From a virus (lineage: Duplodnaviria > Caudoviricetes), in IMG/VR virus record IMGVR_UViG_2595698393_000001, positions 11,995-75,994 of that record: 64,000 nt of DNA; one strand, given 5' to 3'. The position numbers and the translations under genes are program-made. Every line of letters starts with the position of its first letter. Position 1 is the first letter of the stretch. The notes under the pieces are model-generated. The model worked only from the letters and a program-made list of their open reading frames with translations, ran no database searches and was not told where the DNA came from. This document shows, piece by piece, positions 1,566 through 55,421 of this stretch.

Positions 1566-2162
1566 TTAAATATAGTGTTGTTTATTTAATTCACTGTAAT
1601 AAACACAAAGTTTTTTTGAGTGTAAGTCAAAAACGTCGAAGTGCCATTCGAGTAGTTTGCACATTTCTTGATAATCAAAAGGTATTGATTGATTTCCGTA
1701 AGCTGAACCTATTTCATCTGACCAAGTTTTATGTATAAGTATATCATCTGAATTTATAGCCTTTGAAACGTCTATGTAGAATTGAATTTCGTTATCGATT
1801 GGTTGCTCACTATCATTAGGGTCCTCTAATAACTGAAATGATTTAATTTTACCGTCTTCAAATATGGTGTCTTCACCGTTTATTTCAAAGTCGTAACTTT
1901 TAGCAATTTCAATTAAAGGTATAAATGTCTCTCCATTAATTGTTATTTCCTTGGTTAAATCGCTTAACGGTCTTAGTATTGGTTTATGACCTATTCCGTT
2001 TATAACATTGTACAAATGCGTATATTTTCTAGGTAAGTCATAAGCCTTTGACATTTCAGATAATTCACGTACAACATTTTTACCGCTTTTTATTTTTAAT
2101 TCAAAAGGTAAATAAGGCGCTAAGTGTTTTAATTCTAGTTTCTCTTTGTTTTCTGTTTTCAT
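1566..2162 (-). CDS. Conserved Bacteroidota phage hypothetical protein
   Basis: LELKHLAPYLPF...KPILRPLSDL...LLEWHFDVFDL motifs recalled from flavobacterial phage proteins. Confidence 0.7.
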   Translation of the reverse strand: MKTENKEKLELKHLAPYLPFELKIKSGKNVVRELSEMSKAYDLPRKYTHLYNVINGIGHKPILRPLSDLTKEITINGETFIPLIEIAKSYDFEINGEDTIFEDGKIKSFQLLEDPNDSEQPIDNEIQFYIDVSKAINSDDILIHKTWSDEIGSAYGNQSIPFDYQEMCKLLEWHFDVFDLHSKKLCVYYSELNKQHYI

Positions 2163-2195
2163 AATACGTTTTTTAGATTAAATTATTATCGAGTT

Positions 2196-2203
2196 CAAAT
2201 ATA
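2196..2203 (-). promoter_or_regulatory. Bacteroidota sigma70 -7 element for the leftward operon
   Basis: TATATTTG on the minus strand matches TAnnTTTG, 34 nt upstream of the ATG at 2162. Confidence 0.55.
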
Positions 2204-2437
2204 TGTAAATATTTGTAAACTTGTGTATTTTATTATGAAAAAATAATTGTTGTTCAATGGTTGTTCAAATTTCATTGGACCAATGACTGCAAGTGCCGCA
2301 AGTACTGCATTGACTTCTTTGGCTCCGTGCCCGGAGTTAGAATACGTTTTTTAAAAGAAATACTTGCACAGTATGTTTTTTGGATATATATTTACATATC
2401 TTTACAAATATGTACAGAAATTAAAAAACAATAAATT

Positions 2438-2662
2438 ATGATTAAAGAAAACAGTAGCCAAGAAAGCAAAAGCAATGAACTTTATATATTGTTACCTACT
2501 GTAGAAAATACGGACAAAGAAGAACTAAACTTAATTAACAGTCTAAAAGAATATATAGATTGGTATGGTTGCAGAGATAGTAAAATGGATAAAATACTGC
2601 CAATAGAACAACAAGAAGGAATTGTAGTAACAGCAATGACTTTATTAAAAGAACTAACGTAG
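2438..2662 (+). CDS. Cassette ORF 1, hypothetical
   Basis: 74 aa ORF that reads through the GTT at 2491. Confidence 0.65.
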   Translation: MIKENSSQESKSNELYILLPTVENTDKEELNLINSLKEYIDWYGCRDSKMDKILPIEQQEGIVVTAMTLLKELT

Positions 2663-2679
2663 TATTTTATATTGTTGGT

Positions 2680-2802
2680 AACATATTTGGGTATGGAAAG
2701 TACGAGTAAATAAACAGTAATTTTTAGTAAAACACAAAATAAAGTAAATATGAAATTAAATAGAAATAGTAAAATAAGTAAGTATTTTTTATACCCGTTG
2801 TT
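2680..2802 (+). repeat. attC-like site A
   Basis: AAC(2680)-N6-GGGTATGGAAAGTAC(2689-2703)...GTATTTTTTATACCC(2782-2796)-N3-GTT(2800). Confidence 0.75.
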
Positions 2803-2965
2803 ATATGTAGTGCTTACAATACCTTTTGCGCTTTTTGCAATATTGTACTACAGCTCTAAAATAACACGAAGTTTAAGTTATCTATGCGTTTTTAAAATAG
2901 AAAGCGCAAAGCAAGAAATCACAGACTTTTGGAGCATAGAAACAGCTTTGGGAGATGTATTTTAA
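2750..2965 (+). CDS. Cassette ORF 2, small membrane protein
   Basis: 71 aa with a hydrophobic segment; starts inside site A. Confidence 0.65.
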   Translation: MKLNRNSKISKYFLYPLLYVVLTIPFALFAILYYSSKITRSLSYLCVFKIESAKQEITDFWSIETALGDVF

Positions 2966-3026
2966 CATTACATATAACGTTAAAATATATGATTAGTGCG
3001 ATTAAATTAAACTTAAACATAACAAA

Positions 3027-3395
3027 ATGAAAAAAGAAATAACAGAATTAAAAGATTTAAAAGGTAAAACGATAGTTGATACTAAAATGTCTTGTGGTGA
3101 CCTTTGGATTAAATTCTCTGACGATACTTTTGCTGTTTTTATTGTGAATGATATAACAGAAGGCTTTGGACATAGAAAAGAAGAAGTTAATTTATGCCAA
3201 TATGGTAAAGACAAAACAGAACATACTCTGCTCGAATTAGGTTTAATAACAAAACAGGAATATGAAAATGCTTGTAAGGATGAAGAATTGAGATACAATA
3301 AACTAGAAGAGAAACGAGAAAAAGAACAACAAGACCTAATTAAAAAAAATGAATTAGAGCAGTTAGAGAAACTTTCTAAAAAATACAATAGATAA
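3027..3395 (+). CDS. Hypothetical protein within the array
   Basis: 122 aa ORF with A-rich leader and coiled-coil C-terminus. Confidence 0.7.
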   Translation: MKKEITELKDLKGKTIVDTKMSCGDLWIKFSDDTFAVFIVNDITEGFGHRKEEVNLCQYGKDKTEHTLLELGLITKQEYENACKDEELRYNKLEEKREKEQQDLIKKNELEQLEKLSKKYNR

Positions 3396-3433
3396 ATACA
3401 TAACACAAACTAATTGAATTAAATATACGAATT

Positions 3434-3658
3434 ATGACAAACGAAGAATTTTTAAAAGATGTATGTCCGAATCATACAGAAAAATCAAAATGGAACAGAA
3501 GCGAATTACTGCACATTTTAGATATGCATAAAAAGCAATTACCTATAGCCGATGTTGTGGGGCGAAGCGAACAGTTAAATTGTGGGGATTGTGATAATTA
3601 TGAGGAATACGATAACGGTATTAAATGGTGTAGTAATTGCGGAAATAAATTAAGTTAA
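3434..3658 (+). CDS. Cassette ORF, zinc-ribbon protein
   Basis: CGDC...CSNC after the site-derived peptide LPIADVVGRSEQL. Confidence 0.65.
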   Translation: MTNEEFLKDVCPNHTEKSKWNRSELLHILDMHKKQLPIADVVGRSEQLNCGDCDNYEEYDNGIKWCSNCGNKLS

Positions 3659-3674
3659 CAATTTAATTGCTTAC

Positions 3675-3796
3675 AACGCTTGCAGGTATGTTTAGTGCCT
3701 GATTAAATAGTATAAATTTTTAAAATACAGATAACGATGAAAAAAGAACAGAACTTGAATAATGCAGAAACACAGGCATTAAATATACCTGTTGTT
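3675..3796 (+). repeat. attC-like site B
   Basis: AAC(3675), arm CAGGTATGTTTAGTGCCTG (3683-3701) pairs with CAGGCATTAAATATACCTG (3773-3791), then GTT(3794). Confidence 0.8.
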
Positions 3797-4042
3797 ATGT
3801 CCCGTTTTGATATTGAGCGTAAGGATTTGTATGAATATGACAAACCAAAAGAACGCACAAGAAAACGACTTACTGAAATGGCTGAATGTGGTATGGAAGA
3901 AACAGGTATTGCTTCATTTGGTTATAAGGGCATAATGAGTGGTTTGTATATCGAAAAAGTGTGGGGATATTCTGATGAAGATTTCAAAGATTATATGGAT
4001 TGGGCGAAAGGTTTAATTGTAGCTTCCTTAAATGGGGCATAA
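3737..4042 (+). CDS. Cassette ORF, hypothetical
   Basis: 101 aa; N-terminus (QALNIPVVMSRF) is encoded by site B; its stop TAA overlaps the AAC box. Confidence 0.7.
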   Translation: MKKEQNLNNAETQALNIPVVMSRFDIERKDLYEYDKPKERTRKRLTEMAECGMEETGIASFGYKGIMSGLYIEKVWGYSDEDFKDYMDWAKGLIVASLNGA

Positions 4043-4164
4043 CGGCTACTTGTATGAATAGTAGCCGAAAGTAAGCGAGAAACTTTGATTAAAAAACTAA
4101 ATTAGCAAATACAAAATAGCCACTAAAAAGACACCTTAACAGGCTATTATTTATACAAATTGTT
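4041..4164 (+). repeat. attC-like site C
   Basis: AAC(4041), arm TTGTATGAATAGTAGCC (4050-4066) pairs with GGCTATTATTTATACAA (4142-4158), then GTT(4162). Confidence 0.8.
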
Positions 4165-4181
4165 AGGGTGCGTTATTTAAA

Positions 4182-4379
4182 ATGGATGCAAATACTATAA
4201 AATTCAAAACGATTCAATTTATAAACGGTACTAAATATTTAGCACCAAAGCAAGTGGATGATTTAAAATACATAATTACTCACAATTTAAAAATTGAAAA
4301 AACAGAAGATACAGATAAAGCGATTGAAGAAGGTATAAAAACTTACTTTGATATGCAAAATAGCGTTGGGATTATTTAA
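4182..4379 (+). CDS. Cassette ORF, hypothetical
   Basis: 65 aa bracketed by GTTAGGGTGCGTTA and TAATGCACTCTAAC. Confidence 0.7.
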   Translation: MDANTIKFKTIQFINGTKYLAPKQVDDLKYIITHNLKIEKTEDTDKAIEEGIKTYFDMQNSVGII

Positions 4380-4423
4380 TGCACTCTAACAATGTTATAT
4401 AACTAATTCAAAAAACTGAATAT

Positions 4424-4660
4424 ATGGAAACTACTGCAAAACAAGTGACTTTAAATATAATAGATGGTAAATTTACATCTTTAGAATTGCAAAATTTACT
4501 TCAATTAATTGCACAAGAGTTGAAATTACAAACTACATCCAATTACGCTAAAGAAAACAAACTATCTTTTAATGGAGTTAAAAACTTTAGGCCTCATATT
4601 TTAATTGATGGAATCAAATTTCATTCAGACGGAATTATAGAAAATAGCTTACCTTTTTAA
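4424..4660 (+). CDS. Small putative HTH-like DNA-binding protein
   Basis: LQTTSNYAKENKLSFNGVK resembles an HTH. Confidence 0.45.
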   Translation: METTAKQVTLNIIDGKFTSLELQNLLQLIAQELKLQTTSNYAKENKLSFNGVKNFRPHILIDGIKFHSDGIIENSLPF

Positions 4661-4679
4661 TAAAAAAACCATCGGGAAA

Positions 4680-5965
4680 ATGGCAACAATAAGACTAGTA
4701 ACGAGAAGCAAGAAAAACCCTTGCAATTTAAACATTCGATTTTCTGCAGGAAGGGAGAACAACTTCTACTTGCCTACAAAAGTCTTTGTTAATCCAAACC
4801 ATTGGGATAATAAAAAATCGAACTACAAAAACTCTAACGAAATAGAAGATAGAATGATTAAAGCGGCTAAATTTGAACGCTTAAAATCTGATATTTTAAA
4901 CGAGTATAACACTGCTTATATGAATGGCGAAGTTACCGATACTCAATGGCTAGAAGAAGTTGTTAAGGATCTGTTTGATCGTCCAGAAAAAGAGAAAGGA
5001 AACAAAGTTCGTGAGCATTTTGTGTACTACTTAGATTTTTGTGAGTATTGGTTGAAGGAAATTGCACCGACCTGGAAGACAGAAAAGAATAAATTCATGT
5101 CAAAAAGAGCAATTCAGCAGTACGACACCTTCGTATTAGCCTTTAAAAATTTTCAAAACAGTTCTACAGGAAGGAGATACCGTATAAAAGATGTAAATAG
5201 TGTTGTTTTAAACGATTTCTCTACTTATCTATGTGACGAAGCTAAGTTTGCTCCTACGACATCGAAACGTTTAGTAGGTCGCGTTAAATTCTTTTTAAAC
5301 AGAGCAGAGAAGATCGGAATAAAAACAGATCCAAGCTTTAAAGAACGAGTTTATGTATCTAAAGAGGAAGGAGATATTTTGGTTCCGTATCTTAACGAAG
5401 AGGAAATTAGTAGAATTTTCAATTTAAACCTTGAGCACGATCATATTTTAGATAACATCCGGGATAGTTTTATAATTAGTTTGTGGTCGGGCCTTAGAAT
5501 TTCGGATTTCAATAATAACCTGAAGGCTGATAACATAGAAGGAGATTATATTAGTATAAAAACAAATAAGACTGGTAGTTGGGTGACAATTCCACTACAT
5601 AACCAAGTTAAGTTCGTGCTTAGTAAGCGTTTTGGTAATTTGCCGGCTAAATTTAGTGACAAGCTTTTTAATAAGCACATCAAAACAATATGCATGCTTG
5701 CTGAAATTGACGAAGATATTAAAGGGAAGTTATTCGATAAAGAAACGAAGCGTAAACTTACGGGTATCTATCCAAAATATAAGCTTATTTCGAGCCATTC
5801 GGGACGTCGAAGTTTTGCCAGTAACCTCCATGGCTTCGTACCTAATCACATACTTTCGGATCTTGGTGGTTGGTCCAGTGAAAAAATGATGCTTCACTAT
5901 GTTAAACGAACAAAAAAGAAAGTGCAGAAATTTTAAAAAACATTTGGGATGAAAAATATAAATAG
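4680..5965 (+). CDS. int: Tyrosine recombinase / phage integrase (Bacteroidota type: arm-binding, core-binding and catalytic domains)
   Basis: Catalytic set R (SGLRISD), K (KTNKTG), HxxR (SHSGRRSF), W (GGWSS), Y (LHYV). The ORF ends at 5936; adding one A in the run near 5915 gives the C-terminus TKKESAEILKNIWDEKYK ending at 5965. Confidence 0.93.
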
Positions 5966-6236
5966 TAAAGAAAAAGAAGTTCACAAACCTGAAGATGTAG
6001 TGAGATTTTTTAATGAAATGTCTATTGCAAGACGCAATCATGATATGTTCAATCCTTGGGAACCGTTTTCACACATAAGCGCAGATAAAATTTTCACAAA
6101 AGATGTTCTTGATAAAGGATTGAAATTATTAAGAGAATTGAGAATAGAAGAAACACAACAAGAAATTAATAGAATTGAATTAGATGAACTACCTAAATTA
6201 AAGGAGCATCTATTATATCTTAAAAAAAATAATTAG
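5949..6236 (+). CDS. Hypothetical protein
   Basis: 95 aa ORF co-directional with int. Confidence 0.6.
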   Translation: MKNINSKEKEVHKPEDVVRFFNEMSIARRNHDMFNPWEPFSHISADKIFTKDVLDKGLKLLRELRIEETQQEINRIELDELPKLKEHLLYLKKNN

Positions 6237-6237
6237 T

Positions 6238-6699
6238 ATGAGAGATACAAGATTAGAAATTTCTATAGAATCTTTAATAGAGTACAAGTACCCTAACATT
6301 AAAGATTTGAATGTAGAATGTATTCAGGGTGGTAAGACTGTAATTAAATACAGTAACAAAGATATTCCAAAACAAGATGTAATAGATTTTTTAGGGAGTG
6401 TTAAAAAAGAAACTGCTACTGAAGAATTTATAAAGGATTTAATTAGTGGTAGTGCCTTCGTATTCCACAACGGAAAACTTCTAGTTGAAAAAGGAAGTAC
6501 CGAAGAATCGTTTTTGAATAAACATATAATGTGTACTTCTTCAATAGATGGTGAGTTTTTTACATACACACTAGTTAGGTGCGATAAAAATAGTAGTGAA
6601 ATAATAATGTGCAAAACATTTAGGGAAGAAAAAAACTTTAAAGAGGAAGTTAATAATTTGGCAAAATATTTCAATGCAGATATACTTGAGGAAAAATAA
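6238..6699 (+). CDS. Hypothetical protein
   Basis: 153 aa ORF abutting the previous gene. Confidence 0.65.
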   Translation: MRDTRLEISIESLIEYKYPNIKDLNVECIQGGKTVIKYSNKDIPKQDVIDFLGSVKKETATEEFIKDLISGSAFVFHNGKLLVEKGSTEESFLNKHIMCTSSIDGEFFTYTLVRCDKNSSEIIMCKTFREEKNFKEEVNNLAKYFNADILEEK

Positions 6700-8374: not shown

Positions 8375-8441
8375 GTTAACACCGCCCAATTAAGGGCGAA
8401 CGCTTGCAGCCTAATAACCTATTTTATGCCGCTGCAACGGC
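8375..8441 (-). ncRNA. Pistol self-cleaving ribozyme
   Basis: Minus strand: GCCG UUGCAG CGGC AUAAAAUAG GUUA UUAGG CUGCAA GCG UUCGCCC uuaauu GGGCGGU GU UAAC. P1, 6-bp pseudoknot, P2, GCG core, P3 and G/U cleavage site are all present. Confidence 0.85.
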
Positions 8442-8576
8442 TTCAATTTTCCATCCTTCGTACTTCATTGCCCAATGTGCACTTTGACTTTGTTTCCTTT
8501 GTAACTGCATATAACATTCGTTTTCTGTTCCTGTGAATTTAATTTCTCCGTCTTGACTTAAATTATATTGTTGCAT
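8424..8576 (-). CDS. Small hypothetical protein (50 aa)
   Basis: Manual translation MQQYNLSQDGEIKFTGTENECYMQLQRKQSQSAHWAMKYEGWKIEAVAAA; its 3' end overlaps pistol P1. Confidence 0.6.
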   Translation of the reverse strand: MQQYNLSQDGEIKFTGTENECYMQLQRKQSQSAHWAMKYEGWKIEAVAAA

Positions 8577-55349: not shown

Positions 55350-55421
55350 AGTTGTTGGTGAGATTCGAACTCACGATATTAGTTTTGCAGACTAACCTCT
55401 TAACCACTTGAGTACAACAAC
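55350..55421 (-). tRNA. tRNA-Cys (GCA)
   Basis: GTTGTTG/CAACAAC acceptor stem, U discriminator, D-arm CTC/GAG, TTAGT-CTGCAAA-ACTAA anticodon arm, GTGAG-TTCGAAT-CTCAC T-arm. Confidence 0.92.

Follow-up and report, generated by a model that had tools for sequence, protein, structure and literature searches.

A probable integron-like array of gene cassettes in a relative of the Cellulophaga phages

The common view of integrons is that they are bacterial devices and depend on a single family of enzymes, IntI. Here we describe a row of small gene cassettes in a 64,000-nt stretch of phage DNA (bases 11,995-75,994 of the 75,994-bp virus record IMGVR_UViG_2595698393_000001; below, the window, with positions counted from its first base), whose closest relatives are the Cellulophaga phages phi13:2, phi18:3 and phi46:3 (Pachyviridae). 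The segment 2426-4390 is probably a mobile gene-cassette array of an integron-like system in Flavobacteriia and their phages, and it is best read as an orphan member of that system with inverted polarity.

Qi et al. 2023 predicted that methyltransferase genes of the Polaribacter phage P12002L are flanked by two attC sites, found that one of these sites recombined with attI1 under IntI1 on the bottom strand only, and predicted clusters of attC sites lacking integron-integrases (CALINs) in virulent phages (PMC9892861). The word 'Cellulophaga' does not occur in the main text of that paper, and the accessible literature described no array of this kind for either the Cellulophaga phages or the Flavobacteriaceae; Table S1 of the same paper (17 CALINs) may list them. 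The available text on IntegronFinder 2.0 names one complete integron only in Bacteroidetes, that of Salinibacter ruber, and, if the present reading holds, searches with attC models would seem to miss arrays of the kind described here. The promoter early stem-loop (PeSL) cassettes of T4-type phages resemble the window array in their small non-essential genes, hyperplastic region, repeated junction motif and whole-module differences, but they use a promoter and a local terminator hairpin as homology (Arbiol et al. 2010, PMC2839356), whereas the helices of the window are private, long-range and enzyme-linked. Unlike single-strand transposons of the IS200/IS605 type, the window genome has no match to a Y1 (HUH) transposase (PF01797, E <= 0.1).

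Anatomy of the array and its sites

The array lies in a rightward block of seven small open reading frames (ORFs) at 2438-4660, with a conserved divergent regulatory region upstream. A sequence-only reading of the window had described most of these ORFs as bracketed by a 5' GTT arm and a complementary 3' AAC arm. Five arm pairs are indeed found where it had put them and bracket five of the seven ORFs, but in four of the five the 5' arm lies inside the called ORF; ORFs 3027-3395 and 4424-4660 are without such arms. Three sites, at 2680-2802 (123 nt), 3675-3796 (122 nt) and 4041-4164 (124 nt), fit the geometry AAC-N8-GTAT...ATAC-N5-GTT that had been proposed for them, with inner arms measuring 16-20 nt rather than 15-19 bp. 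Their description as unrelated in sequence does not hold, as a leader consensus of ~35 nt and the half-site TTATAC-N-GT/GTTA are common to the sites.

To derive a grammar, we listed the junctions of four phages and of metagenomic relatives. With a slash marking the joint, the + strand reads ...ATT + 5 private nt + TAAC / G + ~7 nt + GTATGr..AGTnGC ... GCnATT..TTATAC + ~5 nt + GTTA + 5 private nt + nGT..., and its elements are named, in order, R'', L'', L' and R'. The partner of L'' is L', ~70-140 nt downstream, while R' pairs with the R'' behind the same gene through private arms 13-24 nt long. Since these private arms pair across the gene, the local R box of the linear array is just TAAC and GTTA. 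The boxes are 13-14 bp long, with the cut at the border between box and spacer; tyrosine-recombinase core sites have boxes of similar size and are cut at the same kind of border. Profiles were built from 22 left and 19 right halves. The parts of the array, all on the + strand, are the following.

2426-2682 (+): cassette A, partial; ORF 2438-2662 (phrog_23798), R' 2491-2511, R'' 2662-2682 ending in AAC
2683-2978 (+): cassette B, complete; spacer, L'' 2688-2703, L' 2782-2797, R' 2800-2812, ORF 2750-2965, R'' 2966-2978
2979-3404 (+): segment C; leader-like start, ORF 3027-3395, no arms of its own, weak left-profile match 2963-3005
3405-3677 (+): cassette D, partial; ORF 3434-3658, L'-R' half-site 3531-3560, R' 3554-3558 + 3572-3583, R'' 3658-3677
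3678-4043 (+): cassette E, complete; L'' 3682-3701, L' 3773-3792, R' 3794-3807, ORF 3737-4042, R'' 4030-4043; site 2 is 3675-3796
4044-4390 (+): cassette F, complete; L'' 4050-4066, L' 4142-4158, R' 4162-4180, ORF 4182-4379, R'' 4372-4390; site 3 is 4041-4164

The arms of cassette A are paired at 17/21 positions plus one G.T, and those of cassette E at 14/14, two of them G.T. The region of cassette B (site 1, 2680-2802) has a left-profile match at 2667-2722 and a right-profile match at 2780-2816. In cassette D the arm pair consists of 3572-3583 with 3658-3669, plus GTTGT with ACAAC, and its half-site 3531-3560 was detected by the right profile (E 0.0014) although it was absent from the training set. 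The site of cassette F is entirely non-coding, and its L module is one of a family that nine or more viral contigs have conserved. The own-arm score of segment C is no better than that with the arms of other cassettes. A reading of C and D as a single two-gene cassette was rejected, given that the leader 2979-3010 and the L' half-site 3531-3553 pair poorly (by-eye comparison).

The sites are restricted to this locus. Across the whole 75,994-bp genome the left and right profiles match only within 2468-4174 (+). The composite pattern AAC-N8-GTAT...ATAC-N5-GTT has just three matches on either strand of the window, and genome-wide these 3 compare with a mean of 0.077 in dinucleotide shuffles, of which 0/300 reach 3; since this pattern was set after the sites had been seen, we relied on independent tests instead. 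Nor does the array match a described RNA family (Rfam, 2100-4800, + strand, E <= 10). What is conserved is a nucleotide sequence and not a peptide: of 21 cassettes, 14 have R' within a coding region, where 10 read it in one frame and 4 in a second, and the remaining 7 have it outside coding sequence; a third reading frame through R' would hit a stop (GTTAG or GTTAA). Several ORFs begin within a site or run through it, with start codons in the inner loop.

Two observations bear on the size and cargo of the units. Among IMG/VR loci, the distances from AAC to the next R' cluster at 77-85 nt (n=14) and 111-124 nt (n=23), which indicates that the L module comes in discrete sizes, and one 115-nt variant of it is ~90% conserved (by eye) among contigs with differing flanking ORFs. 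In phi46:3, two ORF-less units (2262-2339 and 3010-3084) have R' and R'' arms of 17-18 nt just 25-27 nt apart, and for one of them the preceding gene sits inside a 299-nt L loop.

In much of this the array resembles classical integrons and CALINs: single-gene cassettes stand in one orientation, structure is conserved more than sequence, and the sites comprise R and L boxes with AAC and GTT cores, an unpaired spacer, a variable loop and one favoured strand. Like integron cassettes, those of the window have complementary ends, as expected from a cut in one box of the site of a circular cassette; ORF-less cassettes occur (phi46:3), and DNA methylases are frequent cargo in relatives. As in a CALIN, no cognate integrase and no IntI stand beside the window array, in which three full and two partial sites are recognized by our own profiles.

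Covariation, folding strand and exchange of cassettes

The arms of the cassettes are private. For the outer arm, a cassette's own partner is strictly the best in 12/30 non-redundant cassettes, and for the inner arm (5' leader) the own cassette body is strictly the best in 13/30, the expectation being 1/30 in both cases. R-box positions 5-9 take the form of 18 different pentamers among 20 cassettes, and yet they pair at 4.8/5 with their own partner versus 2.34/5 with others (0/20,000 permutations). Position 11 is G.T in 17/20 cassettes in the printed alignments, including 5/5 in the window, and T.T is frequent at position 10. An independent set was obtained by scanning IMG/VR with the left motif alone, which gave at least 80 loci, 44 of 80 also having a right-profile match on the same strand. 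In this untrained set, 14/15 R'-to-AAC units of up to 700 nt pair at 5/5, and 0/20,000 permutations reach the sum, with the qualification that three cassettes are each present in two contigs, so that the units are not all independent. Units above 700 nt failed to pair and probably skip an undetected site.

The L helix shows the same behavior. In an alignment of 23 sites it consists of 17 contiguous base pairs without a bulge column, 97.2% of the cells being paired and 13/17 pairs showing double changes; 0/500 shuffles reach this score, and slid controls give 27-49%. Two of its G.U(T) pairs are essentially invariant (22/23 and 23/23). Scored symmetrically, the helices comprise 440 Watson-Crick pairs, 44 G.T, 1 A.C and 24 other (binomial p = 2.6e-12), where the 44 G.T are not independent events because many stand at fixed positions. 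The excess of 44 G.T over 1 A.C indicates that the + strand is the one selected to fold, and this selection is clear. Thus three features mark the strand here, namely the fixed G.T pairs, the 8x5 spacer and the T.T often present at R-box position 10, unlike in classical integrons, where flipped-out (extrahelical) bases serve as marks.

Comparison with related phages, which the sequence-only reading had put forward as a check, reveals gain, loss, re-ordering and transfer of cassettes with joints at AAC/. The block of cassette E (3675-4045) is 99% identical in phi13:2 but has different neighbours on both sides there, and both joints fall at AAC. Cassettes A and B stand after the E counterpart in phi13:2 and before E in the window, so their order has changed. 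Cassette A recurs at 84% identity, with its end at AAC, in phi10:1, which belongs to another virus family. In all, AAC/ is the break point on both sides of E, to the right of A, for one shared leader and for four different last cassettes. Furthermore, nine unrelated sequences, each with AAC at its end, precede a single conserved L module of 115 nt, with the similarity starting directly after the AAC.

The borders of the array and what lies beyond them are conserved among the relatives.

2156-2437 (no strand assigned): divergent regulatory region, the promoter-proximal fixed border, 95-97% identical in phi13:2, phi18:3 and phi46:3
4388-4423 (+): fixed joint AAC/AATGTTATATAAC..., the integrase-proximal border in an attI-like position, from the comparison of four phages
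4424-4660 (+): ORF G, 78 aa, between array and integrase, 97-99% conserved in relatives (phrog_18952), no Pfam or NCBIfam match
4680-5936 (+): tyrosine recombinase, 418 aa, with Phage_int_SAM_5 and Phage_integrase (Pfam), the sole one in the genome

The same AAC/AATGTTATATAAC... sequence is joined by four different last cassettes, those of the window, phi13:2, phi18:3 and phi46:3. By its location, this fixed joint would correspond to the attI site of a classical integron.

Recombination had been placed at G/TT. The joint does lie in the conserved box, but it is at AAC on the + strand and reads G/TT only on the - strand, which means that the whole site travels before the gene and not behind it. 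This arrangement departs from the classical integron, and with the whole site before the gene the private R arms pair across the gene. The window genes moreover lie on the folding strand, so that a site precedes its gene and can supply a 5' untranslated region (UTR), a start codon and an N-terminus; and the integrase, co-directional with the cassette genes and downstream of them, is not divergent as in classical integrons.

The observed anatomy, covariation, strand bias and AAC/ joints, together with the link to the Xer/IntI clade on chromosomes (see below), fit a mechanism whose chemistry, circular intermediate and acting enzyme we infer. Upon closure of a circle, the series R''-spacer-L''...L'-spacer-R' would become a single imperfect hairpin, in which two protein-sized boxes of ~13 bp would enclose an unpaired 8x5 spacer, as in the anatomy of attC. 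The fixed G.T pairs would allow folding of the + strand only, a tyrosine recombinase would cut and join the folded + strand at AAC/, and cassettes would be excised, inserted and re-ordered as units. The comparison of the phages supports shuffling of the array by what would be structure-specific recombination outside a classical integron. The earlier proposal that the phage both collects and shuffles cassettes in this way is supported as regards the shuffling; collecting by the phage itself is less certain, given that a cognate recombinase is missing and the neighbouring integrase is rarely near such sites.

Chromosomal arrays and their recombinase

The same family of sites occurs on bacterial chromosomes. 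Two Flavobacteriaceae genomes contain clustered left motifs, with 16 and 9 matches versus 0 for the reversed pattern, and three chromosomal arrays hold 7 to 14 left-site matches each in very uniform sites. These match the same profiles and share with the window the R-box grammar with G.T at position 11, a spacing of ~120 nt and the AAC/ joint. As a working definition, the system is characterized by sites that match both profiles, by private R arms with G.T at position 11 and by an L box with two fixed G.T pairs, and the window array has all of these. In all three chromosomal arrays, however, the G.T strand is not the one that encodes the cassette genes, which are on the other strand. The folding strand is therefore kept while the gene strand flips, which argues that the helices are not mRNA structures. 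Of the chromosomal ORFs, eight were tested and 8/8 gave Pfam matches, a DUF6090 copy and the MORN_2 match scoring below the Pfam cut-off. The cargo of these arrays includes four DUF6090 paralogues, an acyltransferase-like protein, a PF00144 serine hydrolase and a transpeptidase-domain protein.

A tyrosine recombinase stands at the end of each of the three chromosomal arrays. The three enzymes are mutually 47-64% identical, score 216-227 bits on NF040815 ('tyrosine recombinase/integron integrase', cut-off 220) and match the integron-integrase model in two stretches, where their 189-212 bits fall short of the cut-off (265). At 20 further loci of this recombinase (55-70% identical), 18/20 have two or more site matches within 8 kb; in each case these are on the strand opposite the enzyme gene and all to one and the same side of it. 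Thus, where the system has a cognate enzyme, this enzyme is Xer-like and falls below the integron-integrase cut-off, in contrast to a classical integron, and the window phage itself has no IntI. On the chromosomes both genes and recombinase are opposite to the folding strand, whereas in the window the genes lie on it and the neighbour is an unrelated integrase.

Phage relatives extend this family. P12002L has 7 left-profile matches (E <= 0.011) on the gene strand and no annotated integrase. In the Polaribacter phage Leef_1 (7440-8980) and the Cellulophaga phage Ingeline_1 (8130-8960), one or two, or a few, sites of the same family lie upstream of a compact integrase and co-directional with it; this integrase is ~35% identical to the chromosomal array recombinase.

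The window array and its chromosomal and viral relatives point to a cassette system parallel to integrons, with another recombinase and another way of marking the strand, of which the phages would represent a branch of opposite gene polarity; the known cargo elsewhere includes DNA methylases. If this is true, it would explain the trade in small early genes by flavobacterial phages across unrelated virus families, and the sites would constitute a new class of structure-specific recombination sites.

The acting enzyme and alternative explanations

Several observations weigh against the reading of 2426-4390 as an integron-like mobile array. Some joints depart from AAC: the start of the array breaks at its first ATG (homology of the regulatory region ends at 2426-2444, at or just past this codon), and of the two joints of the block 3024-3423, which is also present in phi18:3, one falls at an ATG and the other within a second leader type (ACAAACTAATTGAATTAAA). 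The linear array has TAAC and GTTA alone as its local R box, and the private arms are 150-1,100 nt apart. With DNA energy parameters, the L helix is the minimum-energy structure in just 1/3 window sites. Arms of 14 nt that are anchored by GTT and AAC and have 12 or more pairs number 4 in the array by a crude count, the shuffle mean being 1.4. The P12002L site tested with IntI1 may differ from those found by the profiles. No excised circles or junction reads were seen in contigs from public runs aligned to the phi18:3 array, each run containing at most a 0.16 share of the window's words. Finally, the 75,994-bp genome encodes no cognate Xer/IntI-clade recombinase, its single tyrosine recombinase being of an unrelated family, and integrases of the window type are rarely found with sites: 5/80 chromosomal loci of such an integrase have any site match, and 1/79 new site-bearing viral loci has such an integrase in the fetched flank.

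As there is no cognate enzyme and the resident integrase is unrelated, the array is an orphan. By BLASTP the phage integrase shows no similarity to the array recombinases (E > 0.05), it has no match to TIGR02249, the IntI model, at E <= 0.01, among NCBIfam models it matches XerD alone, with 27.6 bits, and no solved relative of it was found by sequence. A serine recombinase is likewise absent from the genome. The most likely course is that the cassettes are exchanged in trans by an enzyme of the host or of a co-infecting phage. Less likely, and on the whole doubtful, is that the unrelated integrase (4680-5936) acts on the cassettes. This integrase does occupy the AAC/ end of the array, the position of the cognate enzyme elsewhere, and the arrangement recurs in metagenomic contigs with integrases 50-64% identical and, with a compact Xer-like integrase, in Leef_1. 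In metagenomes, two or three of 7 loci of the window-type integrase have sites. A search of IMG/VR for it returned only phi13:2, phi18:3 and phi46:3, and in genome contigs a first scan found none and an alignment-based second scan found 80 loci. When an integrase profile was run on 82 loci (the 79 new viral loci, phi18:3, P12002L and phi10:1), it matched phi18:3 and L083 only, the profile being narrow, so that distant recombinases could be missed. A further step, to which we give a still lower probability, would be a self-contained 'inside-out' integron, in which the 418-aa integrase, perhaps with ORF G, has been recruited to folded + strand sites at 4388-4423. If this were true, each exchange would swap 5' UTRs, start codons and N-terminal peptides, resulting in chimeric early proteins and new gene sets.

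Among explanations of another kind, recombinase-free shuffling survives best, although we consider it unlikely. Here the junction motif would serve as short homology for general recombination or for hairpin-stimulated replication slippage, much as PeSLs do in T4-type phages, where mini-circles are formed (PMC2839356). Such a process could account for the joints in other conserved junction sequences, namely the AATT-ATG context and the second leader type, and would suit the fact that most site-bearing viral contigs have no recombinase in the fetched flank and that none is annotated in P12002L. However, the homology at the joints is merely ~4-5 nt, sigma-70-type promoters are not in excess (14 versus 15.9 expected, in a scan without Bacteroidota-type promoters), and no array junction has a terminator-like hairpin. 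Homology would also leave the private covarying arms and the fixed G.T pairs unexplained, and the association of the chromosomal sites with a recombinase is tight (18/20).

Less probable again is an RNA element, in which helices of the early mRNA would close the gene ends for processing, stability or translation, modularity then reflecting the survival of intact RNA units. In every phage array it is the sense strand that has the G.T pairs, which would be G.U in RNA; start codons lie within the inner loop, and RNA energy parameters recover the L helix in 3/3 window sites on the + strand, compared with 1/3 for DNA; folding of single sequences does not decide between DNA and RNA. The same phage also has a pistol ribozyme at another gene junction (8375-8442 (-), RF02679, 46.5 bits against a gathering score of 34.5, in the leftward early operon). 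RNA-library contigs, aligned like those of the other runs to the phi18:3 array, span it without gaps. Their adaptor joints lie at 5264, 5780, 6498 and 7259; those at 5780 and 7259, where the genome repeats the adaptor end (GTAC and AGAGTAC, respectively), are read as mispriming rather than RNA ends. Against an RNA role, the chromosomal arrays of the same site family have their genes on the other strand and a dedicated recombinase alongside, the spacers are not conserved and no catalytic core is apparent, no other operon of the genome contains the site motif, the joints fall at one nucleotide position and not anywhere in the unpaired spacer, and the array matches no Rfam family.

Chance inverted repeats in AT-rich DNA, to which the marginally raised crude count (32/500 shuffles reach 4, and ~53 (+) and ~62 (-) such pairs, ~115 in total, occur genome-wide) and the lack of enrichment of the short left motif TAAC-N8-KTATR alone in the window (5 versus 5.45 expected) could be ascribed, are refuted by the permutation and covariation tests and are contradicted by the profile restriction, the private pairing, the composite pattern and the coinciding breakpoints. 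The shuffled control that the sequence-only reading had named thus gave a divided result, single repeats being near chance and the composite pattern being unmatched by shuffles; because single repeats are weak, significance rests on position, covariation and comparison with other genomes.

Some further features of the material deserve mention beside the probable integron-like array. In a DNA metagenome, one contig of 508 nt combines the two arms of a phi18:3 cassette with another body, 161 nt long, between them, which is no more than a hint. Downstream of the integrase, in window 5937-6240, homology with the relatives stops again at 5964-5975, within the start of the post-integrase ORF and at a position that has no AAC-type site, leaving the integrase and ORF G as a conserved island flanked by two variable regions. 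On the other side, the segment 964-2162 (-) contains an HNH/NUMOD4 endonuclease ORF (964-1539) and a 198-aa ORF; as phi13:2, phi18:3, phi46:3 and L007 all lack a counterpart of the stretch 973-2156, variability extends to the leftward operon here. A tRNA gene (67.7 bits) lies at 55350-55421 (-).

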